Positions 5,722 through 61,217 of a stretch of 64,000 bases of DNA are shown piece by piece (within the stretch, counting starts at the first letter, position 1; every line of letters begins with the position of its first letter). The position numbers were made by a program, and so were the translations under genes. The DNA comes from Escherichia phage vB_EcoM-P3322, in sequence record PV191315.1; one strand, written 5' to 3'. The notes beneath the pieces were generated by a model. That model had not been told where the DNA came from and made no database searches. It saw only the letters and a list, made by a program, of their open reading frames with translations.

Positions 5722-5817
5722 TACTAAACAATATGGAGCAGGAGAAGTTTATAAAATATTCAACCGAAAAGGTGATAAACTTTTACTAACTTTGACTATT
5801 CCAGAAACAATGTGCAA

Positions 5818-33988: not shown

Positions 33989-34184
33989 TTCTACCTCCTT
34001 CAATGCTTTGTGCCGTACCATCCCAAGCCATTAGAATGTTTTCCAATAGTTCACGAGGCTCTTTAAACCAAACTTCCATTTCATCAAGAATCTCGTCCGT
34101 GTCGTAAGTATAACCTGGAACACCAAGTTCACATTTCTTAAGATAGCTTTCTAACCAGCGGTGATAATTCTTAACCCCATTCAT
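33981..34184 (-). CDS. hypothetical protein
   Basis: Track ORF. Confidence 0.45.
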   Translation of the reverse strand: MNGVKNYHRWLESYLKKCELGVPGYTYDTDEILDEMEVWFKEPRELLENILMAWDGTAQSIEGGRNE

Positions 34185-34557
34185 ACTGTGCTACCTTTTC
34201 TTTTACCCAATCTACACGATCTTTATCATAATGTTGAGTGCCAAGGAAAAGACCATTGTGGAAACTTTCCTCACCGAAAGGATAAATTGGATCTAAACCA
34301 TCTTCTTCAAACAACATTTTTAATCTGTTTGATGTAGATTTCTTAGTTTCTGAATTGTAGTTTGTGGTTATAAGCCAATCTTCCAAACAACGACACAAGC
34401 CTTGACGAGAATCCCAAGGAAAAACACAATCTCCGACAGGAGCTTGTTCCGCCCATTTCAACCAACCTTTAAAAAAGTTATACAATATGTAGTCTTCAGT
34501 GTAATACATTAGCGCCTCCTTTACATATACAATAACACCCCGCAGAACGGGGTGCAA
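34171..34557 (-). CDS. paralog family A member (divergent)
   Basis: Shares W..W......GLC.C....PF.....(V/I).WVKE.(V/I) pattern with 5 other ORFs. Confidence 0.55.
   Translation of the reverse strand: MHPVLRGVIVYVKEALMYYTEDYILYNFFKGWLKWAEQAPVGDCVFPWDSRQGLCRCLEDWLITTNYNSETKKSTSNRLKMLFEEDGLDPIYPFGEESFHNGLFLGTQHYDKDRVDWVKEKVAQYEWG
34536..34554 (-). other. intergenic hairpin
   Basis: caccccg-cagaa-cggggtg. Confidence 0.35.
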
Positions 34558-37177: not shown

Positions 37178-37501
37178 TCACGCCTCCTGTTTTAGTCGAA
37201 AAATATTTTGAATAACTAGAGATGTATAGTTATCACCTAGTCCCATAAGTTCTACTTCCAAGTTTCGAATATCCTCCACCGTAGGAGGATATGTTGGTAA
37301 AAATGCTTGAGCATTACCAGATCCAACTTCATTGCTGTAAGCAGTTGTAAAATTGTAAGATACAAAACATGAAACACCTTTTTGTCGGTACCCGATTAAT
37401 CGACGAATACACCAGATAAGAGCCAAACCTATGAGAACACCTCCTAAACCAGCTAACAAGAAGGATAAGTTCATAATAGCTTCGTTAACAACTGCTTCCA
37501 T
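37178..37501 (-). CDS. membrane protein
   Basis: RBS AAGGAG; TM segment LSFLLAGLGGVLIGLALIW. Confidence 0.6.
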   Translation of the reverse strand: MEAVVNEAIMNLSFLLAGLGGVLIGLALIWCIRRLIGYRQKGVSCFVSYNFTTAYSNEVGSGNAQAFLPTYPPTVEDIRNLEVELMGLGDNYTSLVIQNIFRLKQEA

Positions 37502-38332: not shown

Positions 38333-38659
38333 TCAACTATTTATTTCTTCTGCTACACGTTCTTTTACCCAGTTCACACGATCCACATTCAAATGACAAC
38401 GGCTTTTTTCCGCTTCTAAGGTGTACTTTCCAAAATTACTGTTGAAAGGCAACACCATAACCAAATCTTTGTGGTAGAACTGCTCATGCATTTCATCCAG
38501 TACGGGTTCGTATCGTTCGCTTTCACCCATATCGTAAAAATCATAGAGGTTCGAGCACAAACCTGTGCAACGGGTGAACGGTTCGCCTTCAGGAGCACCA
38601 GCTTCCAACCATGCCAAATACGTGCGGTAAAATGTTAATAGTTCTTCGCTCATTTCCAC
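38333..38659 (-). CDS. paralog family A member
   Basis: RBS GAAGGAG; FYRTYLAWLEAGAPEG...GLCSNL...PFN...HLNVDRVNWVKERV. Confidence 0.65.
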   Translation of the reverse strand: MEMSEELLTFYRTYLAWLEAGAPEGEPFTRCTGLCSNLYDFYDMGESERYEPVLDEMHEQFYHKDLVMVLPFNSNFGKYTLEAEKSRCHLNVDRVNWVKERVAEEINS

Positions 38660-39092: not shown

Positions 39093-39418
39093 TATTCATC
39101 CTCCTCTGCAATACGATCTCTTACCCAATTAATCCTGTCCACATTCAGGTGACATACCTCTGCATCTGATTCTAAGACATATGCATCGTAGTTCTCATTG
39201 AAGGGTAATTCTTGACTCAACCCTTTGTGGTAAAACTGTGCGTGCATTTCATCTGCCAAGGTTGTTATAAGGGGATTGTAGCCATCCGCGTGCACATAGT
39301 CGAATAAGTTGGCACACAAACCGCAATCCCGCCGAAAAGGTTTACCATCAGGAGCACCAACATCAATCCATGCTAGATAAATTTTATAAAACTCCATCAA
39401 CCTTGCGCTTGTTTTCAT
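39092..39418 (-). CDS. paralog family A member
   Basis: FYKIYLAWIDVGAPDG...GLCANL...PFN...HLNVDRINWVRDRI. Confidence 0.65.
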   Translation of the reverse strand: MKTSARLMEFYKIYLAWIDVGAPDGKPFRRDCGLCANLFDYVHADGYNPLITTLADEMHAQFYHKGLSQELPFNENYDAYVLESDAEVCHLNVDRINWVRDRIAEEDE

Positions 39419-42129: not shown

Positions 42130-42330
42130 TTATTTATCTTGCTTGTATCTTACAAGGCGATCACACTCCAGGTCAAGAAATTTCTCCGCATTTCGTTCGT
42201 GTTTGAGCACAATACATTGTTCTTTCCAGTCTGTAGCTCTTTGCTGCGCTGCTCCTGGGTCAAAATCCCAAAGCCATGCCGCGAAAAGAACAACCATAAC
42301 AATTACTAAGAAACTAAACACTATTGGCAT
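42130..42330 (-). CDS. small membrane protein
   Basis: ATG 42330 after AGGAGGA; TM segment IVFSFLVIVMVVLFAAWLW. Confidence 0.5.
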   Translation of the reverse strand: MPIVFSFLVIVMVVLFAAWLWDFDPGAAQQRATDWKEQCIVLKHERNAEKFLDLECDRLVRYKQDK

Positions 42331-42635
42331 TGCACATCCTCCTGTGTAGCATGGTCTTTTACCCATTTTATACGGGCAGCATTCAAATGCAATAGCCCGT
42401 TTCTTTGTGCAAAATCATATTTAAACCAGTCTCCGTCATCAAACGGGTATTCTTCAGACAATCCTGCCTCACGGAATTGCATTTGCATTTCATAATTTAG
42501 ATCATCATAACCTCCAGTCCAAAGGTAGAGGCAACTACATAATCCTTTATCATGCCAGAAAGGATTATTATCTGGAGCACCAGCTAATAGCCAATTATGA
42601 TATGCCTGATAAAATTCTTTAAGTTCCTCTGACAT
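42321..42635 (-). CDS. paralog family A member
   Basis: RBS AGGAGG; FYQAYHNWLLAGAPDN...GLCSCL...PF...HLNAARIKWVKDH. Confidence 0.65.
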   Translation of the reverse strand: MSEELKEFYQAYHNWLLAGAPDNNPFWHDKGLCSCLYLWTGGYDDLNYEMQMQFREAGLSEEYPFDDGDWFKYDFAQRNGLLHLNAARIKWVKDHATQEDVQCQ

Positions 42636-48854: not shown

Positions 48855-48894
48855 AGTGTTATCCTTTGTTTCGTTGTTTGCTGCCAGTGAATTA

Positions 48895-48923
48895 AATATA
48901 ATATAACGCCGATCCCCTGTCAA
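48895..48923 (-). promoter_or_regulatory. sigma70-like promoter embedded in palindrome
   Basis: rc: TTGACA-17nt-TATATT; -35 flanked by atcccct/aggggat inverted repeat. Confidence 0.5.
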
Positions 48924-48959
48924 TAGGGGATAGCGCATTATTTACATTTCTTTACGTTA

Positions 48960-48980
48960 AAGGGCGCTTAGTGCGCCCTT
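48960..48980 (-). terminator. hairpin terminator (copy 2 of AAGGGCGC-N5-GCGCCCTT)
   Basis: aagggcgc-ttagt-gcgccctt. Confidence 0.55.
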
Positions 48981-48988
48981 GTATAATC

Positions 48989-49669: not shown

Positions 49670-49685
49670 GATATGACTCCTAAAT

Positions 49686-49748
49686 CAGGCGGGAAACATT
49701 CCCGCCCTACGTGATAAATGATAATGTAAGCGTGATCCGGTGTCAATA
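49686..49748 (-). promoter_or_regulatory. PeSL-like unit
   Basis: hairpin ggcgggaaacattcccgcc; rc TTGACA-17-TATCAT. Confidence 0.65.
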
Positions 49749-49887
49749 GGTAGGATTGTAAAGATTTGATAGTTTATCTCTTTGATGTTTTGTTGTTTGA
49801 TAGATGTTAGCTATCAATATATAGCGGGGTCGTCCGGTGATTATCTTCCCCTGCTCCCAGGTGCCGCCCGTTCAATAAGTATAACAA

Positions 49888-49913
49888 AAAACAGGACAAA
49901 AACAAGCCCTGTT
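49888..49913 (-). terminator. hairpin terminator (minus strand)
   Basis: aaacagg-acaaaaacaagc-cctgttt with T-run on minus. Confidence 0.45.
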
Positions 49914-49921
49914 TATTTATC

Positions 49922-50056
49922 TTAAAACCAGTTGCCAACCGTTTCCAATAGGTCACTGACTACCAGGACAACATTAATCAGCACATATTCAACCAGGAAG
50001 GGAATAAGCGCCAGCGTTGCTACTACGATCCCCATTGTGATGATTACCTTTCTCAT
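49922..50056 (-). CDS. small membrane peptide (44 aa)
   Basis: Below track threshold; ATG 2 nt after upstream stop; hydrophobic. Confidence 0.35.
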   Translation of the reverse strand: MRKVIITMGIVVATLALIPFLVEYVLINVVLVVSDLLETVGNWF

Positions 50057-50058
50057 GG

Positions 50059-50343
50059 TTAGCGGCTTACGTAAGCTTTACCGTTTACGGTCATCGGTAT
50101 GGCCTCAAGGTCTGGATCTTCCTTAAGGTCGCGTGCAAGCTCACCGCAGCGGATACCCTCGAATCCGTGGTATTCTGTCGCGCCGTCCTGGAAAGTTTTA
50201 GCGGCAAGGCATAGGCGATAATTAACACCGATCCGGTTTACCGCGTTGATATCGGTTAACGTGATGGATTCAGGCAAATCATTAGCCATTACAGGCGCGT
50301 TAATACCAACAACCAGGGCAACTACTGCGATCATCTTTTTCAT
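50059..50343 (-). CDS. small secreted protein (signal peptide)
   Basis: MKKMIAVVALVVGINAPVMA; PeSL-like hairpin upstream. Confidence 0.6.
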   Translation of the reverse strand: MKKMIAVVALVVGINAPVMANDLPESITLTDINAVNRIGVNYRLCLAAKTFQDGATEYHGFEGIRCGELARDLKEDPDLEAIPMTVNGKAYVSR

Positions 50344-50369
50344 GTGTCTATCCTCTTCCTATTGCGTTT

Positions 50370-50392
50370 AATGGGGGCGTTACCGCCCTGCT
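50370..50392 (-). promoter_or_regulatory. PeSL-like hairpin
   Basis: gggggcg-ttac-cgccc. Confidence 0.5.
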
Positions 50393-50398
50393 TATGGT

Positions 50399-50635
50399 TT
50401 ATTGATTGATGTTATAATGAAAATTATTTTCTTCAATAGCTTTTAAAATAAAAGCCGTGATCGCTTTCGTGTCTACTTGTTCGAACGTATCAGAATAGCA
50501 CCAATAATAATCATCCCCTACTTTCGGCGGGTAAACCTGGACAAGGAGATCGCCACCTGGTTGATCTATAAGCTCAACATGCAAGCCGGATGATTCAGCG
50601 GTTTTAACGGCGGTTAATACTGTTGCAATACTCAT
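50399..50635 (-). CDS. hypothetical protein
   Basis: Track ORF; hairpin upstream. Confidence 0.6.
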   Translation of the reverse strand: MSIATVLTAVKTAESSGLHVELIDQPGGDLLVQVYPPKVGDDYYWCYSDTFEQVDTKAITAFILKAIEENNFHYNINQ

Positions 50636-50652
50636 AATCTTTTCCTTTCTGA

Positions 50653-50672
50653 TGTGGGGCGTTGCCGCCCCT
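50653..50672 (-). promoter_or_regulatory. PeSL-like hairpin
   Basis: ggggcg-ttgc-cgcccc. Confidence 0.5.
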
Positions 50673-50679
50673 TTGTTGA

Positions 50680-50979
50680 TTAGATCGCTGTTTCCAGTAG
50701 TTCGGCTAACGTCTTACCGCCTGATAGTTGGTCTAACGTTTGCTCTTCTGGCAAGAAATTAGCTGATATTAATCCGACTTGATTTCCTTTGTGCCAATTA
50801 GCTTGACGGATGATTCCATCCTTTAAAGATTTTACCGCCATTGTGCAACCGTCGCCAAATGATTCATTTTTATGATCCATCACTTCATAAGCGCCCAGCT
50901 TGCTACTGTTAGGCACCATTAACGCGAATACATCACCAACAACCAGTTTTTCTACGGTAATAATAGCGATAGTTTCCAT
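50680..50979 (-). CDS. hypothetical protein
   Basis: RBS AGGAAAG; PeSL upstream. Confidence 0.6.
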   Translation of the reverse strand: METIAIITVEKLVVGDVFALMVPNSSKLGAYEVMDHKNESFGDGCTMAVKSLKDGIIRQANWHKGNQVGLISANFLPEEQTLDQLSGGKTLAELLETAI

Positions 50980-50985
50980 TTTACT

Positions 50986-51046
50986 TTCCTCATTATCGGC
51001 GGCACCATTGCCGCCCTACGTGGTAAATATTAGCACACTGGCGATC
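50986..51046 (-). promoter_or_regulatory. PeSL-like unit
   Basis: hairpin ggcggcaccattgccgcc; rc TTGACA at 51039-51044. Confidence 0.65.
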
Positions 51047-51060
51047 TGTGTCAATACTTT

Positions 51061-51447
51061 TTATTCAATATAAATCAAATTATCTTCACCAATGTAAGCC
51101 GACACGTTCGGCATAAACTTAGCTGCATTGGTTAGGCGGTTGGCTGTGTTAGTGGTGTATATTTCAGGGCGATCCCAAAAGCCTACGCCGTGACCGTTAC
51201 GGGTAAAATGTAAATCATTCCCGATCTGGTTGGCTGTTGCGCCGTCGCTCATTGCCTCAGAGATAGCGGCAAGATTAGCATTAATAAAGGCTGTTACATC
51301 CTGGGCGATCCGTTGATCTGCGCTAGGAGAAAAATCATAATCGTCTAAGTTATCAATAAAATTACCTTCATGATCCCTTGCTGATTCAGCAAAAATAAAG
51401 GCTTCTTTATAGCCGTTGATGATTTCAATAATGATTTCTGTTTTCAT
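51061..51447 (-). CDS. hypothetical protein (conserved HFTRNGHGVGFWDR motif)
   Basis: Track ORF, 128 aa. Confidence 0.6.
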   Translation of the reverse strand: MKTEIIIEIINGYKEAFIFAESARDHEGNFIDNLDDYDFSPSADQRIAQDVTAFINANLAAISEAMSDGATANQIGNDLHFTRNGHGVGFWDRPEIYTTNTANRLTNAAKFMPNVSAYIGEDNLIYIE

Positions 51448-51668
51448 GCTGTACGCTCGACAATAATAATAGTTTGCGGGATCTCGTTTTCTACTACTAA
51501 CAAGGCTTTTTTCTGTGTGATAGATATTTTAACACGTTGTAAAGTAGCGGTAAAATCTTTCATTTCATTATGCGCGGATTTAGTACAATGCCAGATCTCA
51601 GGCTTACCAACTTGTAAGCCGCGTAAAAATTCCGTTTTGCCTGTTTTGTTCGTGATCATTTGTTTCAC
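51444..51668 (-). CDS. hypothetical protein
   Basis: Track ORF, overlaps neighbours. Confidence 0.55.
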   Translation of the reverse strand: MKQMITNKTGKTEFLRGLQVGKPEIWHCTKSAHNEMKDFTATLQRVKISITQKKALLVVENEIPQTIIIVERTA

Positions 51669-51669
51669 C

Positions 51670-51774
51670 TTAACCGATACCGTGGGAAGATAGGATCATA
51701 TTAGCCATAGTTGCAACTACTCCAACCGATAACGCCAGGCCAACCACTGCAACCGTGAAAATTTTCTCTAACAT
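51670..51774 (-). CDS. small single-TM peptide (34 aa)
   Basis: ATG 51774 after GAGGGTAG, downstream of PeSL; track start 51873 reads through the hairpin. Confidence 0.45.
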   Translation of the reverse strand: MLEKIFTVAVVGLALSVGVVATMANMILSSHGIG

Positions 51775-51790
51775 GATTCTACCCTCATTA

Positions 51791-51856
51791 ATGGGCGTTG
51801 CACCATTGCCCCGCCCTACGTAATACACTTTACTAGATAACAAATTATTGTCAAGC
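51791..51856 (-). promoter_or_regulatory. PeSL-like unit
   Basis: hairpin gggcgttgcaccattgccccgccc; rc TTGACA at 51849-51854. Confidence 0.6.
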
Positions 51857-51857
51857 T

Positions 51858-51995
51858 TTATTTTACTTCCCAAACGGAAAATTCGCTGCCTGTTGGGATC
51901 ATTTTTTTAATCTTGTTTGCTGCCGCTACCAGGTCAACGGCTTGTACTGTAATAATATAACCAATTGTCGAGGCTGTTGCGTTGAAAGTTTTCAT
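51858..51995 (-). CDS. small hypothetical protein (45 aa)
   Basis: Below track threshold; RBS AAAGGG; perfect palindrome upstream. Confidence 0.35.
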   Translation of the reverse strand: MKTFNATASTIGYIITVQAVDLVAAANKIKKMIPTGSEFSVWEVK

Positions 51996-52012
51996 TATAT
52001 TGCCCTTTAATA

Positions 52013-52034
52013 CAGGCGGGATTAATCCCGCCTT
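52013..52034 (-). promoter_or_regulatory. perfect palindromic hairpin
   Basis: ggcgggattaatcccgcc. Confidence 0.5.
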
Positions 52035-52039
52035 TTTGA

Positions 52040-52210
52040 TTACTCTTCATTATCGCCGTTATAGTATTCAATGCCGTTTTCATCGGTTACGGTGATGTTA
52101 ACGCCACCGATAGCAACACGATCACGGGCAAACGTCATAGCTTCATTTAAATCTTCAGACCAAAAAATATTGTGACCTTTGCGCGATACATAAAACATAG
52201 TCGGGATCAT
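52040..52210 (-). CDS. hypothetical protein
   Basis: ATG 52210 after AGAAGAGAAA; track N-terminus reads through PeSL. Confidence 0.5.
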   Translation of the reverse strand: MIPTMFYVSRKGHNIFWSEDLNEAMTFARDRVAIGGVNITVTDENGIEYYNGDNEE

Positions 52211-52230
52211 GATTTGTTTCTCTTCTGTTA

Positions 52231-52296
52231 TGAGCGGTGGACCATTCCGCCGCCCTATGTGGTAAACTTTACTACGTTGTTTGCCTGCTGTCAAAC
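52231..52296 (-). promoter_or_regulatory. PeSL-like unit
   Basis: hairpin agcggtggaccattccgccgccc; rc TTGACA at 52289-52294. Confidence 0.6.
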
Positions 52297-52580
52297 TATT
52301 TTTTAATGTTTTGCCCTACAAAATCGATCACTTCCTTAAGCTGTCTCTCTGTCATGATCGTACCTGGTAACTCTTCTTTAATTTCTTCCGGTAAATAGAT
52401 ATTACCGCGCCAGGTTAACAAACAACCGTTTTGATCTTCGCAGATAGAATAAGAAAACATCCACTCGCAATCATTTTCAAGCTCCCAAAAACACAAAAAG
52501 TCTTCTTTCCCTAAGTTTTCAACGGTTAAACATAATCCGCGACGTGCTGCATAATTAGTTAGGCTTTTTGTGATTTTCAT
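52296..52580 (-). CDS. hypothetical protein
   Basis: ATG 52580 after AGAAGAGAGAAA. Confidence 0.55.
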   Translation of the reverse strand: MKITKSLTNYAARRGLCLTVENLGKEDFLCFWELENDCEWMFSYSICEDQNGCLLTWRGNIYLPEEIKEELPGTIMTERQLKEVIDFVGQNIKK

Positions 52581-52598
52581 GATTTTTCTCTCTTCTTG

Positions 52599-52659
52599 TG
52601 AGCGGCACCATTGCCGCCCTACAAGATACATATTACCAGATTAAGCGGACTTGTCAAAC
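52599..52659 (-). promoter_or_regulatory. PeSL-like unit
   Basis: hairpin agcggcaccattgccgccc; rc TTGACA-17-TAATAT. Confidence 0.65.
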
Positions 52660-52769
52660 TATTTTTTCTTTTTCTTTGCTTTCAATCGTCTAAGGTTACG
52701 GCTGGACTTATTGCGCAAGGCGCTTAGATCGTCGTACCCTTTCCATGCTTGCATATCTTTCGGATTCAT
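52659..52769 (-). CDS. small basic peptide (36 aa)
   Basis: Below track threshold; RBS AAGGGGATAAC; Lys-rich C-terminus. Confidence 0.35.
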   Translation of the reverse strand: MNPKDMQAWKGYDDLSALRNKSSRNLRRLKAKKKKK

Positions 52770-52778
52770 GTTATCCCC

Positions 52779-52940
52779 TTACTTGTTAGCCGGATCATAT
52801 ACCAGGACCGCGCCGCTTGCTTTCACGCTTTCCGCTTCATAGTTGCGCAGATCGTTTTCTGTAAGATTGAGCGCGATCACTTCCTCGATCTCAACGCCAG
52901 CGGCAAGGGCGATCTCTTTGATAATATCTGTTGTTTTCAT
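52779..52940 (-). CDS. hypothetical protein
   Basis: ATG 52940 after AAGGTG. Confidence 0.5.
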   Translation of the reverse strand: MKTTDIIKEIALAAGVEIEEVIALNLTENDLRNYEAESVKASGAVLVYDPANK

Positions 52941-52950
52941 GGTGTGCACC

Positions 52951-53070
52951 TTATAAGATGATTGATAAGATAGTGACAACGAAAGCGATTATACTGATGG
53001 CAAATGTCATCTTTTTACCTTCGGATACTGCCGGATTTTCTACCGTGTATTCTACTGTGTACTTGCTCAT
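52951..53070 (-). CDS. small single-TM peptide (39 aa)
   Basis: Below track threshold; RBS GAGAGGATTA; FAISIIAFVVTILSIIL. Confidence 0.4.
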   Translation of the reverse strand: MSKYTVEYTVENPAVSEGKKMTFAISIIAFVVTILSIIL

Positions 53071-53091
53071 CGTGTAATCCTCTCGTTTGCT

Positions 53092-53152
53092 TTGGGAACT
53101 ATTCCCGCCGCCCTATGAATTAAATATACACTATCTCAAAATGATTGCAAGC
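53092..53152 (-). promoter_or_regulatory. PeSL-like unit
   Basis: hairpin gggaactattcccgccgccc; rc TTGCAA -35. Confidence 0.55.
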
Positions 53153-53168
53153 CTTTTTCTAAATTATT

Positions 53169-53453
53169 TTATTCAGTAAACAAACCATCATTTACAACGG
53201 CGGCGATGATCTCCCGTGCCATTGATTCAGGGAAAGGGGCGCTATAGTCCTGGCTTGTCTCATCGGTATCGGTGATCCAATGATAAGCTAACGAGTAAAA
53301 GCCTTTACTAACTGTTTTCAGTGAGATGATGATCACTCGGTCAAGCTTATTGGTGAATGTTGCCGTTAATGTGTTACCCTCCTGCGTCATGTTGGACAAG
53401 TAAGCGAGATCATTAATCAGGGAAAACATTAGCACGGTGTTAGCTTTACTCAT
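53169..53453 (-). CDS. hypothetical protein
   Basis: ATG 53453 after GAGGATG. Confidence 0.55.
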   Translation of the reverse strand: MSKANTVLMFSLINDLAYLSNMTQEGNTLTATFTNKLDRVIIISLKTVSKGFYSLAYHWITDTDETSQDYSAPFPESMAREIIAAVVNDGLFTE

Positions 53454-53468
53454 GATTGCATCCTCAAA

Positions 53469-53529
53469 GGGGCGCGGCACCATTGCCGCCCTACACGATA
53501 ACTATAACACAATGTAAAACAGGGTCAAC
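53469..53529 (-). promoter_or_regulatory. PeSL-like unit
   Basis: hairpin gcgcggcaccattgccgccc; rc TTGACC -35. Confidence 0.6.
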
Positions 53530-53731
53530 CTTTATTTTTCCACGGTGTCAGCTTGTTAATCATTGGTGATAAATAGCGTTTACCAACGTAAAACAGTACG
53601 CCAACTGATGCAACGGCGGCGACCTCATGCATAGCCGACGGGAAACGGGTATCATAATAAGATCCAATAATAGCAATAGCGGCAACGGCTGCAACGTCGA
53701 TAATGATTTTCTCTTGTTTTGCGGTGATCAT
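53525..53731 (-). CDS. small two-TM membrane protein
   Basis: RBS AAAAAGG; hydrophobic segments. Confidence 0.55.
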   Translation of the reverse strand: MITAKQEKIIIDVAAVAAIAIIGSYYDTRFPSAMHEVAAVASVGVLFYVGKRYLSPMINKLTPWKNKG

Positions 53732-53750
53732 AGTATTTACCTTTTTGTAT

Positions 53751-53811
53751 GGTGGGGAACTATTCCCCGCCTGATGTAATACAGTTTAACAGGTCCGGTT
53801 ATGGTGTCAAC
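53751..53811 (-). promoter_or_regulatory. PeSL-like unit
   Basis: hairpin ggggaactattccccgcc; rc TTGACA at 53804-53809. Confidence 0.6.
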
Positions 53812-53816
53812 CACTT

Positions 53817-54002
53817 TTAAAGATATTTTATGCTAATGACGTTTTCAGGTTTTACCTTGTTATAATGTGCATCAACATAGATCAAACCATCGTCAGAAAA
53901 GCCCAGGATCACGCCCTGCGCGATAAAACCGTACTCGTCACGGTAACGCACGGCTATTTTTAATGTTGCGTTGTAGGCTGTTTTAAGCTCGTTTAAAGTC
54001 AT
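53817..54002 (-). CDS. hypothetical protein
   Basis: RBS AGAGGATAA. Confidence 0.55.
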   Translation of the reverse strand: MTLNELKTAYNATLKIAVRYRDEYGFIAQGVILGFSDDGLIYVDAHYNKVKPENVISIKYL

Positions 54003-54029
54003 TTTTGTTTATCCTCTACATGTAAAAAG

Positions 54030-54051
54030 AAAGGGCGCTTGATGCGCCCTT
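54030..54051 (-). terminator. hairpin terminator (copy 3 of AAGGGCGC-N5-GCGCCCTT)
   Basis: aaagggcgc-ttgat-gcgccctt. Confidence 0.55.
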
Positions 54052-54057
54052 GTTATG

Positions 54058-54204
54058 TTAATCCTCTAAATCCATCCAATTATATTTGTCACTCTTCCCG
54101 CGCTTTGTTTTATTACGCTTGTCACCTTTGCGGATCACTTCCTCGTTCCAGGCCTTGCGGATCTTGGAAGATTGAATTTTTTCTGCGCGATTAGATGTAT
54201 TCAT
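54058..54204 (-). CDS. small basic protein (48 aa)
   Basis: Below track threshold; RBS AAGAGGAAAC. Confidence 0.4.
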   Translation of the reverse strand: MNTSNRAEKIQSSKIRKAWNEEVIRKGDKRNKTKRGKSDKYNWMDLED

Positions 54205-54220
54205 TTTGTTTCCTCTTTAT

Positions 54221-54279
54221 ATGAGCGGCACCATTGCCGCTATATTGTTAATTTAAACTGTTTTGTAAAATTGTCAAGG
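54221..54279 (-). promoter_or_regulatory. PeSL-like unit
   Basis: hairpin gagcggcaccattgccgct; rc TTGACA at 54272-54277. Confidence 0.6.
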
Positions 54280-54283
54280 TTTA

Positions 54284-54637
54284 TCATTCATAAGAGCAAG
54301 CAAGGATCACGCCTGCAATATAAAGCCAATAATTTTCCCTTTCTCGTTGGATTTTATCATCGCTGCTATTCTCTTTAATGTATCCCCAGGATGTTAACAA
54401 GCGATCAATTTCCCAATATTCGAAAGCTATATTAATATCTGATGGCAAACCTTGTAACCATGATGCAAGTGCTTTAACAATACTATAATTAAAACGTGAT
54501 TGATTATCAGGGTACCAGTACTCGGAATTAAAACGGCGCATCAATTCCGCGATCTTCTCTTTTTCGGTTGTAATACCGTAATCATTAAAATCGATAGCGG
54601 CAAGGATGTACTCTTTAATTGCATTTTGTGCTTTCAT
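54284..54637 (-). CDS. hypothetical protein
   Basis: RBS AAGAGAGAAAG. Confidence 0.6.
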   Translation of the reverse strand: MKAQNAIKEYILAAIDFNDYGITTEKEKIAELMRRFNSEYWYPDNQSRFNYSIVKALASWLQGLPSDINIAFEYWEIDRLLTSWGYIKENSSDDKIQRERENYWLYIAGVILACSYE

Positions 54638-54652
54638 GGTCTTTCTCTCTTT

Positions 54653-54714
54653 TTAGCGGGAACTATTCCCGCCCTACGTGTAACAGTTTACTGAAAATTA
54701 AATCCGTGTCAAGC
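54653..54714 (-). promoter_or_regulatory. PeSL-like unit
   Basis: hairpin agcgggaactattcccgcc; rc TTGACA at 54707-54712. Confidence 0.65.
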
Positions 54715-54715
54715 T

Positions 54716-54937
54716 TTATTTTGTTACTACCATTTGGTACCCTGTTTCAATGTTAGTAAATACTGTTATCCCGTCCTGGCGTTCACTCATTAGCATACAA
54801 GGCGCTAACATCCTTTCTACTGCCTTGCACTCATTGTAAACGGCGGTTATGTCTCCTGCGGCCTTGTCTTCTGTGGTGAATGTATCGTTTATGTAAACTT
54901 GACTAGCGACAACGGCGACAATAGCGAAAGTGATCAT
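54716..54937 (-). CDS. small secreted protein (signal-peptide-like)
   Basis: RBS AAAGAGAAA; MITFAIVAVVASQVY. Confidence 0.55.
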   Translation of the reverse strand: MITFAIVAVVASQVYINDTFTTEDKAAGDITAVYNECKAVERMLAPCMLMSERQDGITVFTNIETGYQMVVTK

Positions 54938-55010
54938 GATATTTTTCTCTTTATGTGTTTCTATTAGTTGATATTACAGCAATTCGCAGATTATTTTTTA
55001 GCAATTCGTG

Positions 55011-55229
55011 CTATTTACTCATAACAGTATCGAAAACAAATTTTTCTTTGTTGTCAAAGCTCACGTATCCGATTCTACCACGCAAGCCGCAAGTAGTGCC
55101 GTATTCGTAACCGTCAAGACCTTTAACCTTCCAATCCACGCCCATTAAAACCGCATTATATTTCTGACCAACTACAAACGCGCCACCAGTTGATTCAATG
55201 CAAACAACTTTAATTTTACGGATTGCCAT
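55011..55229 (-). CDS. hypothetical protein
   Basis: RBS AGAAAGAGAGAAAG. Confidence 0.55.
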   Translation of the reverse strand: MAIRKIKVVCIESTGGAFVVGQKYNAVLMGVDWKVKGLDGYEYGTTCGLRGRIGYVSFDNKEKFVFDTVMSK

Positions 55230-55267
55230 TTTCTTTCTCTCTTTCTGGTGATTGGTTTCTCTTCTCT

Positions 55268-55310
55268 ATAGCGCCCATTGTAAGGCGCTATAACGAAAAG
55301 TCAACGATTA
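55268..55310 (-). promoter_or_regulatory. variant promoter/hairpin unit
   Basis: hairpin tatagcgcc-cattgtaa-ggcgctata; rc TTGACT -35. Confidence 0.45.
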
Positions 55311-55475
55311 TTTTTTAAGGCTTAAAGTACCTAACTTGTCAGCATGACGCAGACCAGGGAATATCCATTTGCCTGACTCATCTTTCACCGGGGCTTTAAG
55401 CGTAGCGCCCAGGTTGGCGGCGTTAACTTTACGTGCAACGTTGCGAGCGGCTTCACGGGTAGCGAAAGTGATCAT
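55308..55475 (-). CDS. small hypothetical protein (55 aa)
   Basis: Below track threshold; RBS GAGGAAAACACC. Confidence 0.4.
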   Translation of the reverse strand: MITFATREAARNVARKVNAANLGATLKAPVKDESGKWIFPGLRHADKLGTLSLKK

Positions 55476-55497
55476 GGTGTTTTCCTCTTCTCTTTGT

Positions 55498-55563
55498 TAG
55501 GCGGTGGACCATTCCGCCGCCTTGATGTAATACAGTTTACTTTATTTTATTAAGATTGCAAGC
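55498..55563 (-). promoter_or_regulatory. PeSL-like unit
   Basis: hairpin ggcggtggaccattccgccgcc; rc TTGCAA -35. Confidence 0.6.
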
Positions 55564-55567
55564 GGTT

Positions 55568-55783
55568 TTATGAAATAATTGTCAAAGTAAAATCATAAGA
55601 CTGATTTAATTTATATTGTACTTTATTGCCGTAGTAGTCACCTTTACGTAAAGATCCGCGAATACCTATCACATCCTTTACATCTTTAAGATTTTTTACG
55701 CCTGTAATGTCTTTATTGAAATACTCGTCATCTGAAAATAAAACTTGACTTGCATTTTTTAACAGTGTACGGATATTAGCCAT
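55568..55783 (-). CDS. hypothetical protein
   Basis: RBS AGAAGAGAGATTA. Confidence 0.55.
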   Translation of the reverse strand: MANIRTLLKNASQVLFSDDEYFNKDITGVKNLKDVKDVIGIRGSLRKGDYYGNKVQYKLNQSYDFTLTIIS

Positions 55784-55805
55784 CGTGATAATCTCTCTTC
55801 TGTTG

Positions 55806-55866
55806 TGAGCGGCACTATTGCCGCCCTACGTAATACAGTTTACTCTTTTTCTTTCCGGTGTCAACA
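55806..55866 (-). promoter_or_regulatory. PeSL-like unit
   Basis: hairpin gagcggcactattgccgccc; rc TTGACA-16-TAAACT. Confidence 0.65.
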
Positions 55867-55873
55867 ATCTTTT

Positions 55874-56101
55874 TCAGATTAATTCATCCAGGCATAACAG
55901 GCGATCAACGTTGAGATCGGTTAGGCTGATGGTTGGCACCTGGTAGGATTCGATGTACTCGACGCTTGCATATTCCCCAAAATTAGCAACAGCCCACTTA
56001 TTCAAGATCTCACATACATCATTAATCTTTTTGTTTGTTACAACTGCAATGACCTGGGAAGTGCCAACGGTGCCGGATACGCGAACAATATTGATAGCCA
56101 T
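55874..56101 (-). CDS. hypothetical protein
   Basis: RBS AGAGAGATTAAAG. Confidence 0.55.
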   Translation of the reverse strand: MAINIVRVSGTVGTSQVIAVVTNKKINDVCEILNKWAVANFGEYASVEYIESYQVPTISLTDLNVDRLLCLDELI

Positions 56102-56120
56102 AATCTTTAATCTCTCTGTT

Positions 56121-56184
56121 TTGGCGGGAAACCACTTCCCGCCCTATGTGATACATCTTACACTAATTTTAAACGTTGTCAACT
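56121..56184 (-). promoter_or_regulatory. PeSL-like unit
   Basis: hairpin ggcgggaaaccacttcccgccc; rc TTGACA at 56177-56182. Confidence 0.65.
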
Positions 56185-56191
56185 GTTTTTA

Positions 56192-56431
56192 TTACATTCC
56201 AACCATCGCGGCACGGATCGCAGTAGTGCTATATTTGAAACCGTCTGGCGTTTTATCTTGTCCAGTTTGTTCCAGAAAAAGCATCATATCCCGCGCCGCA
56301 TCATTACGATTAGCATTAGCGTTAATAAAATCTTGGGCCAACCGGTATAACGATTCATCGTTATTAATCCAAAGGCTTACATTCCAATGAGTTTTGTTTT
56401 TGTGACCGTTGTACATTTTAGATTTAGCCAT
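56192..56431 (-). CDS. hypothetical protein
   Basis: RBS AAAGAGAGAAAA. Confidence 0.55.
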   Translation of the reverse strand: MAKSKMYNGHKNKTHWNVSLWINNDESLYRLAQDFINANANRNDAARDMMLFLEQTGQDKTPDGFKYSTTAIRAAMVGM

Positions 56432-56452
56432 GATTTTTCTCTCTTTTTCAGT

Positions 56453-56516
56453 GAGGCGGGAAGTGTTCCCGCTCTCTATGTAATACAGTTTACTCTTTTT
56501 ATTCGTGCTGTCAATG
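56453..56516 (-). promoter_or_regulatory. PeSL-like unit
   Basis: hairpin gaggcgggaagtgttcccgctctc; rc TTGACA at 56509-56514. Confidence 0.6.
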
Positions 56517-56520
56517 CTTT

Positions 56521-56886
56521 TTATAAATCTTTTTTACGTTTTACATCGCTCGCATGACTGTATACAGTGATCCCATTGTCACGGCAAAAACGGGAAAGAT
56601 ACGCGCCGCGTGAAAACTCTTTACCTTCCATATTAATAACCTTGCTAAATTCTTCTAGGGCAACGGTATCAAAATGATCCCCATAGCCATATTGAAACGG
56701 AACGTTAACTACTTCGATCAGTTTACCGCCGATCTCAACATCAACCATCAAAGAGAAATAAGTATTACCATAAGACTTTTGAAACCAGCGACGGGCGCTA
56801 ATATGTACCGCTTCAATGCTGGATAGTTCAATTTTAGCAGTGTTAGCCAGGGTAGCATAAGCAGAAACATTGATATTTTTAGCCAT
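56521..56886 (-). CDS. hypothetical protein
   Basis: RBS AAGAGATTAAAG. Confidence 0.6.
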   Translation of the reverse strand: MAKNINVSAYATLANTAKIELSSIEAVHISARRWFQKSYGNTYFSLMVDVEIGGKLIEVVNVPFQYGYGDHFDTVALEEFSKVINMEGKEFSRGAYLSRFCRDNGITVYSHASDVKRKKDL

Positions 56887-56909
56887 AGTCTTTAATCTCT
56901 TTTGATTAG

Positions 56910-56964
56910 TTAGGAGTATTCCCGATAAAAGTTATTATGCTTATACTATCACTCATTGTCAATA
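56910..56964 (-). promoter_or_regulatory. PeSL-like unit (degenerate hairpin)
   Basis: rc TTGACA at 56957-56962; truncated ggagtattcccg. Confidence 0.4.
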
Positions 56965-56981
56965 GTATAAGACTAAAACTT

Positions 56982-57161
56982 TTAACGATAATCGTTATAG
57001 GCTTTATTGACCTGGCGAATGTAACATTCGAAAGCAAGATCAATGTATTCGTATTCACGCACATAATCACCATAGGTCACTACATACATTTTTAAAGTTT
57101 CCTCATAAGCCAGGAGGATCGAATCTAAACCTATAATCTCAGTTTTTGCAATGATAGCCAT
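56982..57161 (-). CDS. small hypothetical protein (59 aa)
   Basis: Below track threshold; RBS AAAGG. Confidence 0.4.
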   Translation of the reverse strand: MAIIAKTEIIGLDSILLAYEETLKMYVVTYGDYVREYEYIDLAFECYIRQVNKAYNDYR

Positions 57162-57179
57162 GATGTTAACCTTTTATTG

Positions 57180-57240
57180 TTGGCGGCACCATTGCCGCCC
57201 TACGTGATAAACTATACCAGAATTTTAAACAGTGTCAACC
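57180..57240 (-). promoter_or_regulatory. PeSL-like unit
   Basis: hairpin ggcggcaccattgccgcc; rc TTGACA at 57233-57238. Confidence 0.65.
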
Positions 57241-57244
57241 GTTT

Positions 57245-57607
57245 TTATTCGTAAATTTTACCGCTTTCGGCCCATACCATAACGCGGCGCATACTATCCC
57301 AAGTGTTTTGATCCAAGTTTAAGCCGTGCAACTCTTCGGTACTTCCCAGACCAGGTACCGCTTTGTTGTAAGTTGCATATAAGCGCCCTTGATACTCATA
57401 CGCCAGAGTAAGATCCGTTTGAATCATCTTTTTAAGCATAGCATTAAGCATCATATTAGCGGCATGTTGATCACGTTTTAGCGGTAACATATCAATAAGG
57501 GCGCGATAAGCTGAAACATGAATATCAACCGTTTCACGTGGTAAATTTTTCATATCATCACGGAAAGATACCAGATTAAACATGATAGTATTGATTTGCT
57601 TGCTCAT
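57245..57607 (-). CDS. hypothetical protein
   Basis: RBS AAAGGGTAA. Confidence 0.6.
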   Translation of the reverse strand: MSKQINTIMFNLVSFRDDMKNLPRETVDIHVSAYRALIDMLPLKRDQHAANMMLNAMLKKMIQTDLTLAYEYQGRLYATYNKAVPGLGSTEELHGLNLDQNTWDSMRRVMVWAESGKIYE

Positions 57608-57626
57608 TGTGTTACCCTTTTTTGTT

Positions 57627-57691
57627 TTGGCGGGGAAGTATTCCGCCGCCCTATGTGATACATCTTACCAGATTAAAAAACGTTGTCAAGA
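57627..57691 (-). promoter_or_regulatory. PeSL-like unit
   Basis: hairpin ggcggggaagtattccgccgccc; rc TTGACA at 57684-57689. Confidence 0.65.
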
Positions 57692-57698
57692 ATATTTT

Positions 57699-57794
57699 TT
57701 AGAAAATAATAACCGCTACTACAACCCAAAATGGAACGGCTAGAATGATAGCGTTAATCGTTCCAACCGTCAAGCTATTTTCTTTATTAATCAT
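57699..57794 (-). CDS. small single-TM peptide (31 aa)
   Basis: Below track threshold; RBS AAGAGGCTTACA; AIILAVPFWVVVAVIIF. Confidence 0.4.
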   Translation of the reverse strand: MINKENSLTVGTINAIILAVPFWVVVAVIIF

Positions 57795-57820
57795 TGTAAG
57801 CCTCTTGCATAATTTCACTA

Positions 57821-57883
57821 TTAGCGGCACCATTGCCGCCCTACGTGGTAAATATTATGCCAGTGGCGGCGATATGTCAAAGA
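57821..57883 (-). promoter_or_regulatory. PeSL-like unit
   Basis: hairpin agcggcaccattgccgcc; rc TTGACA at 57876-57881. Confidence 0.65.
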
Positions 57884-59330: not shown

Positions 59331-59603
59331 GATCTTAACTCCAGGTGATGAATGATGTTTTTTGTTGGTGGACGGTGGATTATGGAGATCCTCACCTTTG
59401 CCCGTCCTGCATTGCGCCCTCCTGTTGTTTATTGTCGTTGTGCCGCGCCCCCCTCGACAAGATGAATACTACGCTACCAGGCGAGGAACGTCAACCACTT
59501 TTTCAATCTTTTTTATTTTCTTTTTGCTTGCTATATATAAAGGAAAGGGCTATCATCTTTCTACCGCGCCAACCAGGGCGCACAACAAAGAAAGGGCGAC
59601 ACC

Positions 59604-59870
59604 ATGACAAATACTACATTACACCTTATGCACTCATTGGGCTGGCAAGGCGGCACGGTGCACCAGGTAGCAAGCGCAACGGGCTTAAAGGTTGAAACAG
59701 TTCTCAACCTGGGCGATCATAAGGTGGAAGAGATAGACCATTTTGATCCGTTCGCTGATGGTTATTTATGGGCTTGCAGTGGCGGCGGGGAAAGCAAGAT
59801 CCCACCAGGGGCGCGGGGCGATATGCATTTTTGGTTAGGTGTCCTTTCCTGGCAAGAAAACAAAAAATAA
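59604..59870 (+). CDS. hypothetical protein (isolated + strand ORF in GC-rich island)
   Basis: Track ORF with non-repetitive sequence; weak RBS. Confidence 0.3.
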   Translation: MTNTTLHLMHSLGWQGGTVHQVASATGLKVETVLNLGDHKVEEIDHFDPFADGYLWACSGGGESKIPPGARGDMHFWLGVLSWQENKK

Positions 59871-59872
59871 TC

Positions 59873-59901
59873 TTGACAAGCCCAGGGATCGGGCTTATAC
59901 T
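59873..59901 (+). promoter_or_regulatory. strong sigma70-like promoter with palindromic spacer, no downstream ORF
   Basis: TTGACA-17nt-TATACT; spacer agccc-agggatc-gggct. Confidence 0.55.
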
Positions 59902-59907
59902 GTTTTA

Positions 59908-60010
59908 CATACAGAAGAGGAAGCGCCACCCCACGGCGTAAAGGCGGGGCTAACATACCAGGGCGCTGGTTGGAAGGTTGATCGCCGGTAGGCTGGGCGC
60001 TATATATTTG
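59908..60010 (+). ncRNA. candidate small structured RNA
   Basis: GC-rich transcript from consensus promoter; no credible ORF; boundaries approximate. Confidence 0.25.
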
Positions 60011-60119
60011 TAAAGAAATGTAAAGATAAAATAATCGCTTGCTTTCCTGGCTGGATCTGTTATTCTTATTACATGGCGAGGGGACACGGGAGCGCGAGAC
60101 AAACACCGCCCCTGCGCGT

Positions 60120-60500
60120 CATTCTCTAAATGAGAATGATTATCATTTACCTTATCAAATAAGAATCAATCTCATTTATAAACCTAAATGCGAATCATTA
60201 TCATTTGCATTTCCATATGAGAACTCTTCTCATTCCCATCTGCATAAATTTTTGTAAACTTTAAATTTTGCTTTTGTACTTTCATTTTTGTAAAAGCAAA
60301 AAAACTTTAAATACTGTGGGCGCGCAAAATTTTTAAAATTTTCCTTGACTTTTGAGTTTTGTTTTGTATCTAACATTTTAAGATAATTTTCCTAAACTTT
60401 AAATTTTGGTTTTCAACTTTCACTTTTGTAAATTCTTAAAAAGTTTAAATAATTTGAGGAATTTTTGAGATAACAAGTAGGGGTAATTTGAGATAACCTT
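60120..60500. repeat. AT-rich iteron cluster
   Basis: Direct repeats aaactttaaattttgNttttNNactttcaNttttgtaaa x2; aatgattatcattt x2; tttgagataac x2. Confidence 0.5.
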
Positions 60501-60593
60501 TAATCTTATTGGCAGACCTTCAGGAACCCACCTAGATCGAATCCTAATGATGCAAACTGAAAAAGATAAGTGTTTGTATAGGACAAAATAATA

Positions 60594-60626
60594 GGCTCTC
60601 TACAGTGTTGTAGGAGCCTTATTTCT
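60594..60626 (-). terminator. bidirectional hairpin terminator downstream of NADAR gene
   Basis: ggctc-t-ctaca-gtgt-tgtag-gagcc flanked by T-rich runs on both strands. Confidence 0.55.
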
Positions 60627-60674
60627 GTGCTACAAAGTGACACCTTTGTTCTAAAAATGAAAAAAGTTAAAATA

Positions 60675-61217
60675 TCACAAATATCGTCTTTGCGGTATTT
60701 TGTCTGGGAAAAGTATTTCGATCAGTTTGTTATGATATTTGCCTAAAAGATTCTGCCCTTTCCAGGTGGCAGGGTTTAGCACCCCTGGTTCATACATCCC
60801 CATTCCAATTCCGTAAACCTTATCGTAGGGGCTTGCTTCAACAAACGTTTTGTATTGGTAAAGGTGTAAGTCTGCATACAAATCTGGATTCTGTACATAT
60901 TTCAAGCATAAACCTCGCATAACAATACGCTCACGGTTCTCTTCCCATACGTTGTTATCAAAATCCGACACTGCCCTACCCATACGTTTGTAATAAGCTT
61001 GGATCTTCTCATCTTTCCGTATCAAACTATGAGTCAGAATAGCCTGTGCAGTGTTGTGGTCATTAAAAAGCAAAGCTTTACGCCACATCATGTATTGTTC
61101 GACACAATTAAATGTCTGATTGTAACCTGGTTCGGTTTCTGTAAAGGGTGCAATATACCAATTACTAAAAACATCTTTATGTGAAAAGAAGAATACATAT
61201 TCGTCAGTTATTCTCAT
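60675..61217 (-). CDS. NADAR-domain (YbiA-like) protein
   Basis: 180 aa; N-terminal FFFSH..FSNWY and central NCVEQYMMWRKALLF resemble the NADAR/DUF1768 signature (recall only). Confidence 0.6.
   Translation of the reverse strand: MRITDEYVFFFSHKDVFSNWYIAPFTETEPGYNQTFNCVEQYMMWRKALLFNDHNTAQAILTHSLIRKDEKIQAYYKRMGRAVSDFDNNVWEENRERIVMRGLCLKYVQNPDLYADLHLYQYKTFVEASPYDKVYGIGMGMYEPGVLNPATWKGQNLLGKYHNKLIEILFPDKIPQRRYL

Follow-up and report, generated by a model that had tools for sequence, protein, structure and literature searches.

The window studied here, a 64,000-nucleotide (nt) stretch of DNA from Escherichia phage vB_EcoM-P3322 (sequence record PV191315.1), carries five very short hydrophobic open reading frames (ORFs) between positions 49922 and 57794, which we call sp1 to sp5. 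A sequence-only reading had listed them as peptides of 31-68 amino acids (aa), and we recovered all five, all on the minus strand (Table 1). The window comes from a Phapecoctavirus-like (phAPEC8-like), virulent Escherichia coli myophage. Its 49.5-58 kilobase (kb) region is 96.9% identical over the full length to Escherichia phage Mt1B1_P17; in ECO340P1, 88% of the query is contiguous, with 99.3% identity across that part. Both relatives are myophages of ~150 kb, and Mt1B1_P17 is classed as Phapecoctavirus, Stephanstirmvirinae. Lower, mosaic similarity of the region extends to Justusliebigvirus, to rV5-like Vequintavirus and to a few genes of jumbo coliphages. GC skew places the genes on the minus strand from ~30 kb on, and 35 small genes (31-185 codons, median ~72) fill 48.4-59.3 kb before this block stops at a GC-rich, repeat-containing stretch (59.35-60.7 kb). 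Within the block, sp1 to sp5 are genes under purifying selection and very probably encode translated membrane peptides.

Table 1. Positions of sp1 to sp5 and of the associated regulatory and coding features in the window
Feature	Position	Strand	Length (aa)	Description
sp1	49922-50056	-	44	MRKVIITMGIVVATLALIPFLVEYVLINVVLVVSDLLETVGNWF; N-terminal MRK, hydrophobic helix 4-22, amphipathic acidic C-terminal half
sp2	51670-51774	-	34	MLEKIFTVAVVGLALSVGVVATMANMILSSHGIG
sp3	52951-53070	-	39	MSKYTVEYTVENPAVSEGKK-MTFAISIIAFVVTILSIIL; predicted tail-anchored, transmembrane helix reaches last residue
sp4	53525-53731	-	68	predicted two-helix hairpin; basic C-terminal tail (KRYLSPMINKLTPWKNKG)
sp5	57699-57794	-	31	MINKENSLTVGT-INAIILAVPFWVVVAVIIF; predicted tail-anchored
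sp2 cassette	51775-51854	-		-35 TTGACA / -10 TAAAGT (51854-51827), 5' hairpin, GAGGGT Shine-Dalgarno site
sp3 cassette	53071-53150	-		TTGCAA-16-TATATT (53150-53123), hairpin, GAGAGG Shine-Dalgarno site
sp4 cassette	53732-53810	-		TTGACA-16-TAAACT (53810-53783), hairpin, AAGG Shine-Dalgarno site
sp5 cassette	57795-57880	-		TTGACA-17-TAATAT (57880-57852), GGCGGCAATGGTGCCGC hairpin, GAGG Shine-Dalgarno site
Cassette promoter nearest upstream of the operon ending in sp1	51027-51054	-		TTGACA-16-TAATAT
94-aa protein, upstream partner of sp1	50059-50343	-	94	signal-peptide-like N-terminal segment (MKKMIAVVALVVGINAPVMA/ND)
Intrinsic-terminator-like hairpin and T-run	49889-49914	-		directly after sp1

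Five conserved genes for hydrophobic peptides

Each of the five ORFs encodes a strongly hydrophobic helix, with best 19-residue Kyte-Doolittle windows of 2.69 (sp1), 2.34 (sp2), 2.69 (sp3), 1.77 (sp4) and 2.75 (sp5). The earlier description of the products as hydrophobic, single-pass peptides needs amending for sp4, which AlphaFold2 predicts to be a two-helix hairpin. We regard the ORFs as genes because their frames and lengths are kept among relatives, because synonymous changes are in excess and because comparable ORFs are rare in shuffled sequence.

Using tblastn against 50,697 phage records and counting full-length or near-full-length matches, we found sp1 in 74 records, sp2 in 150, sp3 in 165 (63 of them at ≥60% identity), sp4 in 62 and sp5 in 113. 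The sequence-only reading had staked its case on conservation of the frames in related phages, and frame, length and hydrophobic pattern are indeed kept over Phapecoctavirus, Justusliebigvirus and Vequintavirus, and for sp3 also in Seunavirus, Rosemountvirus and Salmonella phage PMBT28; loss of the frames was not seen. In some relatives, across genera and subfamilies, frame and length persist at an amino-acid identity of 39-61%. Pairwise Nei-Gojobori ratios of non-synonymous to synonymous change per site (dN/dS), taken from small counts of substitutions, were 0.08-0.53 for all five peptides wherever computable (0.18-0.53 for sp1, 0.08-0.34 for sp2 and 0.15-0.19 for sp4). Per site, synonymous change significantly exceeded non-synonymous change in each peptide (Fisher p 0.006 to 1e-5).

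When each gap was subjected to 5,000 dinucleotide shuffles, an ATG ORF as long as the observed one or longer arose in 0.3-4% of them, and one that was also equally hydrophobic in ≤0.06%. Across the sense strand of 30-64 kb, ~10 ATG ORFs combine a Shine-Dalgarno site with a comparably hydrophobic segment; five of these entries are sp1, sp2, sp3 and sp5 (the last counted twice, as two start variants), and sp4 falls barely below the cut-off. The spacing of the block tells the same story. With the five ORFs counted, its intergenic gaps measure ≤10, 41-55 or 73-98 nt, the last being the length of a promoter cassette (see below), with two exceptions (134 nt at 48855-48988 and 252 nt at 49670-49921). 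With sp2 to sp5 left out, gaps grow to 198-333 nt. This regular pattern supports sp2 to sp5 as genes.

Fortuitous ORFs, or upstream ORFs whose translation serves only to regulate the next gene, might look similar: the five are very short, many annotators skip them, and the stop codons of sp2 and sp3 lie 7 and 10 nt ahead of the next ATG. We give this explanation very little credence, however, since it is the amino-acid sequence and not merely the frame that is conserved (dN/dS <1 in all five), since sp3 keeps its motif and length in other genera despite wholly different downstream genes, and since such ORFs are rare in shuffles.

Promoter-hairpin cassettes and gene starts

The block is studded with ~20 strong sigma70-type promoters (TTGACA-N16/17-TAnnnT), located at 49.7-59.2 kb and all on the minus strand. 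A promoter scan returned 45 promoter-like sites versus 26.7 ± 5.4 in shuffles, and the cassette promoters scored highest. They follow a fixed order of promoter, conserved GC hairpin within ~10 nt of the -10 hexamer, Shine-Dalgarno site and ATG, where the conserved hairpin sequence is GGCGGCAATGGTGCCGCC or GCGGGAAnnnTTCCCGC. In sp2 to sp5 the ATG lies 79-86 nt past the -35 hexamer. The proposal that cassette promoters and good ribosome-binding sites drive the five ORFs was borne out for sp2, sp3 and sp5 (GAGG at a spacing of 6-8 nt) and in part for sp4, which has the promoter and a weaker AAGG at ~9 nt. It does not apply to sp1, which has neither a cassette nor a Shine-Dalgarno site of its own. 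In folds of the four 5' untranslated regions (UTRs) of sp2 to sp5, the hairpin forms while the Shine-Dalgarno purines and the first two ATG bases stay unpaired (for the sp2 cassette UTR, -17.6 kcal/mol, z=-3.1). Downstream of sp4 and sp5 the following cassette begins at or within ~10 nt of the stop codon, and the sp4 stop codon even lies within the next -35 hexamer; behind sp2 and sp3, another gene comes next. The hairpin could form the very 5' end of each early messenger RNA (mRNA) and act there as an mRNA stabiliser or a recognition site.

A comparable arrangement, the PeSL + ORFan cassettes of T4-type phages, consists of a promoter and a stem-loop beside small orphan genes (Arbiol et al. 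2010, PMC2839356). Both systems share a hyperplastic early region with small orphan genes, a repeated sigma70-like promoter and GC stem-loop (~20 copies here), and a gene content that is mosaic, in our case among the relatives of this phage. In contrast to the T4-type phages, the lineage here is Stephanstirmvirinae. The PeSL stem-loop terminates upstream transcription and precedes the promoter, whereas the hairpin described here follows the -10 hexamer, belongs to the 5' UTR and has no T-run. PeSL cassettes also mediate recombination; here, sp5 occupies a different genomic place in ESCO9, which may reflect shuffling.

A 252-nt gap without a credible ORF (49670-49921) separates the terminator after sp1 (49914-49889) from the next cassette promoter (49746). 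A small RNA might be located in this gap, although Rfam gave no match there.

The cassettes also bear on where genes are taken to start. Sp2 and sp5 are internal ATG starts within longer mechanical ORFs (51670-51873 with a TTG start, and 57699-57833 with an ATG start). We rejected the longer upstream starts of both, as these extensions cross promoter or hairpin and are not conserved; the short forms are credible because the longer versions would start within the promoter or hairpin. Mechanical ORFs (52040-52294, 52296-52631 and 51670-51873) and some public gene calls likewise run N-terminally through the cassette hairpin, with artefactual leaders such as MYHIGRRNGPPLI... and MVHRSHIKERNI... 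Because calls extend through the hairpin in this manner, starts are often mis-set in this phage group, with many of them placed inside the cassette, and automated annotation is inconsistent for genes of <45 codons.

We compared the five genes with public annotation, sampling spread sets of matching records (30-40 rows per peptide). The claim that such ORFs are routinely missed proved too broad: sp3 and sp4 are almost always annotated, while sp1, sp2 and sp5 are often skipped. No feature lay under the match in about half of the sampled annotated records for sp2 and in ~40% for sp1 and sp5, the nearest relative ECO340P1 included. The RefSeq entry of Mt1B1_P17 annotates sp1, sp3, sp4 and sp5 (as gp031) but not sp2, rV5 annotates sp1 as well as sp2 from a longer start, and the Schickermooser record has features for all but sp1. 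The labels read 'hypothetical protein' or 'membrane protein' in Mt1B1_P17, tuntematon, Schickermooser and rV5. Four peptides match PHROG families over their full length, namely sp1 (phrog_16005, E=1.6e-28), sp2 (phrog_14631, E=8.5e-22), sp3 (phrog_10979, 'membrane protein', E=5.9e-23) and sp4 (phrog_30003, E=1.6e-46); none of these families carries an assigned function, and the PHROG search with sp5 gave no match. That is, sp1 to sp5 are largely known already as sequences, and in kind they are small phage-encoded early membrane proteins, not a new kind of system.

Among the matching records listed, ~20 GenBank entries labelled 'Campylobacter phage' (MG0656xx, host C. jejuni) contain DNA ~80% identical to the region, with sp peptides up to 97% identical to the versions of E. 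coli Phapecoctavirus and Vequintavirus. These are probably mislabelled or contaminant genomes.

Architecture and predicted topology of the peptides

The positive-inside rule was the basis on which we placed basic flanks in the cytoplasm. The soluble N-terminal part of sp3 carries the motif V-[EQ]-Y-[ST]-x-x-N-P-[AV]-[YV]-x-[EA]-x-[RK], followed by a C-terminal helix that is divergent in sequence and always hydrophobic. Homologues of 38-39 aa occur in Phapecoctavirus, Justusliebigvirus (~40% identity), Seunavirus, Rosemountvirus and Salmonella phage PMBT28 (51%); in two records the gene is called as 41 aa from an annotated start three codons upstream. All eight divergent relatives examined match phrog_10979. 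The phages concerned have very different tails and genomes from 48 to 150 kb, and the neighbours of sp3 differ in each lineage. Besides the sp3 cluster itself, a phmmer search against 1.8 billion representatives yielded just a frameshift variant and one repetitive protein judged spurious. Because the motif is kept while helix sequence and neighbours change, we consider sp3 an autonomous gene with a conserved interaction surface. Seen across unrelated Enterobacteriaceae phages, the same pattern suggests that sp3 has a specific and conserved partner in the host. The predicted topology is a short cytoplasmic N-terminal segment, with KK ahead of the helix, and a tail anchor.

In sp2 it is the other end that is constrained. 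The C-terminal 14 residues, ATM[AS]NMILS[SF][HN]GIG, hardly vary, whereas the hydrophobic N-terminal part drifts, and the length of 34 aa is kept in Phapecoctavirus, Justusliebigvirus and Vequintavirinae (74% identity in UPEC06, 50% in rV5). By the reasoning applied to sp3, the invariant end may, more weakly, indicate a specific host partner. Sp2 would consist of an N-terminal anchor or signal peptide and an invariant C-terminal end of 10-14 residues. Sec signal peptides are organised as n-h-c regions, with small residues at -1 and -3 of the signal peptidase I site; inspected by eye, sp2 divides into MLEK, I5-V20 and A-T-M-A/N, which resembles V-M-A/N in the 94-aa protein encoded upstream of sp1; the 24-residue hydrophobic stretch also fits a membrane anchor. 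Instead of a membrane anchor, sp2 might be a 34-aa pre-peptide, in which the variable N-terminal 24 residues are a Sec signal peptide cut after A-T-M-[AS], so that the decapeptide NMILS[SF][HN]GIG is freed to the periplasm or medium. We regard this as a long shot; if true, virulent myophages of enterobacteria from two subfamilies would, at time zero, produce a secreted peptide that acts as an effector or signal.

Sp1 differs from the other four in its genetic context. It is the final gene of a four-gene operon whose nearest upstream promoter lies at 51054, and its ATG follows the stop codon of the 94-aa gene by 2 nt. This junction is the same in all seven sequences compared (the window and six further loci), either with the stop 2 nt before the sp1 start or, in two relatives, as an ATGA overlap. 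We conclude that sp1 is the last operon gene because it lacks its own cassette and Shine-Dalgarno site, abuts the stop of the 94-aa gene and is followed by a terminator-like hairpin; it is probably translated by coupling with the 94-aa gene. The 94-aa protein matches phrog_9845, a family of unknown function. The sp1 length of 44 aa is kept in Phapecoctavirus and Vequintavirus (rV5 gp165, 61% identity). An internal start at Met8, used by some gene callers (37 aa), was rejected, as Met8 is Leu in rV5-type homologues and residues 1-7 are conserved. AlphaFold2 predicts a single continuous helix of 42 residues (2-43; predicted local distance difference test, pLDDT, 92.8), and model and sequence inspection place the polar residues of the C-terminal half on one helix face. 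Pfam gave sub-threshold matches to DUF7396 and Tom5 and nothing else, and a search of a large protein database found close phage relatives only. The peptide would be a single-pass helix with its N-terminus inside (MRK cytoplasmic) and its amphipathic acidic helix at the periplasmic side. That its coupling to a predicted secreted 94-aa protein is conserved in two subfamilies suggests that the two form a module on the periplasmic face.

Sp4 was found only in Phapecoctavirus-like phages. The AlphaFold2 model comprises helices at residues 4-25 and 33-61 (pLDDT 70.8). A Foldseek search with this model against viral structures gave nothing at E<1, a result in which helical hairpins are uninformative, and a large protein database search with sp4 again returned close phage relatives only. 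The hairpin is predicted to have both termini inside, with the C-terminal tail (+5) and the mildly basic N-terminus in the cytoplasm. For sp5, homologues of 31-38 aa are present in Phapecoctavirus, Justusliebigvirus and Klebsiella phage KP2025 (after correction of two starts that had been set one codon upstream). It is predicted to expose a short cytoplasmic N-terminal segment and to end with its helix, as a tail-anchored peptide.

Further small hydrophobic ORFs occur in this and related phages. Three proteins with good Shine-Dalgarno sites and strongly hydrophobic segments lie on the minus strand outside 49922-57794, in the tightly packed 30-47 kb gene block (33214-33423, 69 aa; 37178-37501, 107 aa; 42130-42330, 66 aa). 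At ~5650-5745 of the ESCO9 locus (minus strand), an unrelated 31-aa ORF, MPYLHLFFGILLTGSFFFCMLVSIVNHVLRH, sits directly upstream of the sp3 homologue, and the KE23 locus has an unrelated hydrophobic ORF of 33 aa at 435-536, MLDYTNLWCVATLVSFYVAVGAVVAIYIMLEDR. Small membrane peptides look like recurrent, exchangeable cargo of such early regions.

Other features of the window were recorded alongside. Two highly basic small proteins are encoded on the minus strand of the cassette block, at 52659-52769 (36 aa, C-terminus RRLKAKKKKK) and 54058-54204 (48 aa, K/R-rich), and may bind nucleic acid. The stretch at 59345-60700 marks the boundary of the early block (GC 0.447 over 58-60 kb); it contains a plus-strand ORF (59604-59870, 88 aa), three repeats spaced by 29 nt (60126-60234) and, at 60247 and 60385, the two copies of a 72-nt direct repeat. 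This stretch could serve as an origin of replication, in regulation or as a genome end. In the 34-42 kb block, a 53-nt segment is present four times at 66-75% identity (34184-34236, 38346-38398, 39102-39154 and 42340-42392), together with the repeat pairs 38442/39198 and 38577/39336, which suggests a paralogous gene family.

Candidate roles in the host envelope

On balance we favour the reading that sp1 to sp5 are five separate, accessory early inner-membrane peptides that serve as host-interaction factors. As soon as infection begins, the sigma70 RNA polymerase of the host would transcribe sp2 to sp5 from their individual cassettes, and sp1 from the cassette of its operon; this early timing is suggested by the promoter type and by the position at the edge of the early block. 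The peptides would insert in the host inner membrane, where each might bind or modulate a host envelope or inner-membrane protein or a DNA-entry route, through helix-helix contacts or, in sp3 and sp2, through a short soluble motif. The expected outcome would be host takeover or exclusion of competing phages, and not cell lysis. We put forward binding and modulation as a class of mechanism tentatively and by analogy, and would not call it probable.

The analogy draws on several small proteins. Bacterial AcrZ- and MgrB-type peptides are small membrane modulators of membrane complexes. The PhiNM1 protein Gp11, a small membrane early protein, binds MurG and DivIC (PMC11237401), and the T4 ac gene product is assumed to act on AcrAB-TolC (PMC13250531). 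These are smaller than ~70 aa with one helix, and they act by binding a larger membrane-associated protein; they are not homologous to sp1 to sp5, and the likeness lies in size, hydrophobicity and timing only.

Several considerations weigh against our preferred reading. That a host membrane protein is bound is an argument by analogy, and five unrelated peptides need not have one common function. Scans of sp1 to sp5 with Pfam, NCBIfam and PADLOC gave nothing above threshold (PADLOC 0 families at E≤1), and ten neighbouring genes match only unknown-function families in PHROG and Pfam, which leaves no guilt by association. The dN/dS values are based on 2-40 substitutions per pair, and sp5 has only one comparison with enough synonymous changes. 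The literature yielded nothing specific on these genes, and the same holds for transcriptome, ribosome-profiling or functional-screen studies of early genes in Phapecoctavirus or Vequintavirus.

Superinfection exclusion is a more specific proposal, in which one or more of the peptides block the DNA entry of later phages at the inner membrane or its periplasmic face, like T4 Imm and Sp. T4 Imm is reported to have two membrane helices. As a small two-helix early membrane protein of a contractile-tailed coliphage, it finds a counterpart among sp1 to sp5 only in sp4, by virtue of its Imm-like size and predicted architecture; the other best candidate is sp1 paired with its 94-aa partner, which is predicted to be directed to the periplasm and is tightly coupled to sp1 in two subfamilies. 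The early sigma70 promoters would suit such a role, as would the contractile tail of this phage, and Imm has been reported to bind the tape-measure channel and block superinfection (bioRxiv 10.64898/2026.03.06.709160). However, no sequence or fold similarity of the 68-aa, Phapecoctavirus-restricted sp4 to Imm was detected: sp2 to sp5 hit no Pfam family at E≤1, the superinfection-immunity family included, and sp4 had no structural match. Moreover, sp3 occurs in phages that differ widely in their tails and genome sizes, which is easier to reconcile with a target in the host than with an entry channel specific to one phage. We hold exclusion specifically to be unlikely.

The peptides could alternatively be membrane-active toxins or viroporin-like proteins, which oligomerise, depolarise or permeabilise the inner membrane and aid host shut-off, comparable to TisB and Hok. 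TisB has been described as a membrane toxin (PMC11575346). With 31-44 aa, one very hydrophobic helix and few charges, most of the set resembles small membrane toxins, and the type I toxins TisB, Hok/Gef, Ldr and Ibs (19-50 aa) share the single hydrophobic helix and the inner-membrane location predicted here; the 42-residue helix predicted for sp1, with polar residues on one face of its C-terminal half, would also be in line. Yet Pfam and NCBIfam gave no match to Hok/Gef, Ldr, TisB, Ibs, ShoB or any other toxin family, and Rfam detected no family over 48-61 kb at the gathering threshold, antisense-RNA families included. Type I toxins are under translational repression, whereas strong promoters and open ribosome-binding sites prevail here, and placing an indiscriminate depolarising toxin behind strong constitutive-type promoters and good ribosome-binding sites, active from time zero, would endanger a phage dependent on an energised host. 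The short conserved soluble motifs of sp3 and sp2 argue for specific recognition. Such a role is accordingly improbable.

The sequence-only reading had also offered lysis timing, that is, a holin, antiholin or spanin-like function. Small hydrophobic phage proteins are often holins or antiholins, and sp4 has two predicted helices as in class II holins. But the five genes are dispersed instead of forming a lysis cassette, they sit in the early cassette block among small unknown genes and not beside an endolysin, and neither Pfam nor PHROGs gave a holin family match. Because of the early sigma70 promoters and the missing link to lysis genes, this is the least likely of the functions proposed in that reading, and we think it highly improbable.

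Our preferred reading of sp1 to sp5 as host-interaction factors concerns genes of a class in which phages keep host-takeover, exclusion and anti-defence functions, the 'dark matter' of early regions. Phages of Phapecoctavirus and Vequintavirus are often considered for therapy and biocontrol, and five easily overlooked ORFs of this group now have good support as genes, with their starts defined, their topologies predicted and conserved motifs recognised. Three of them offer handles for target finding: sp2 through its invariant C-terminus, sp1 through its conserved coupling to a predicted secreted protein, and sp3 through the motif on its predicted cytoplasmic side, which in the form V-E-Y-T-x-x-N-P-A-Y is common to at least five phage lineages of enterobacteria.

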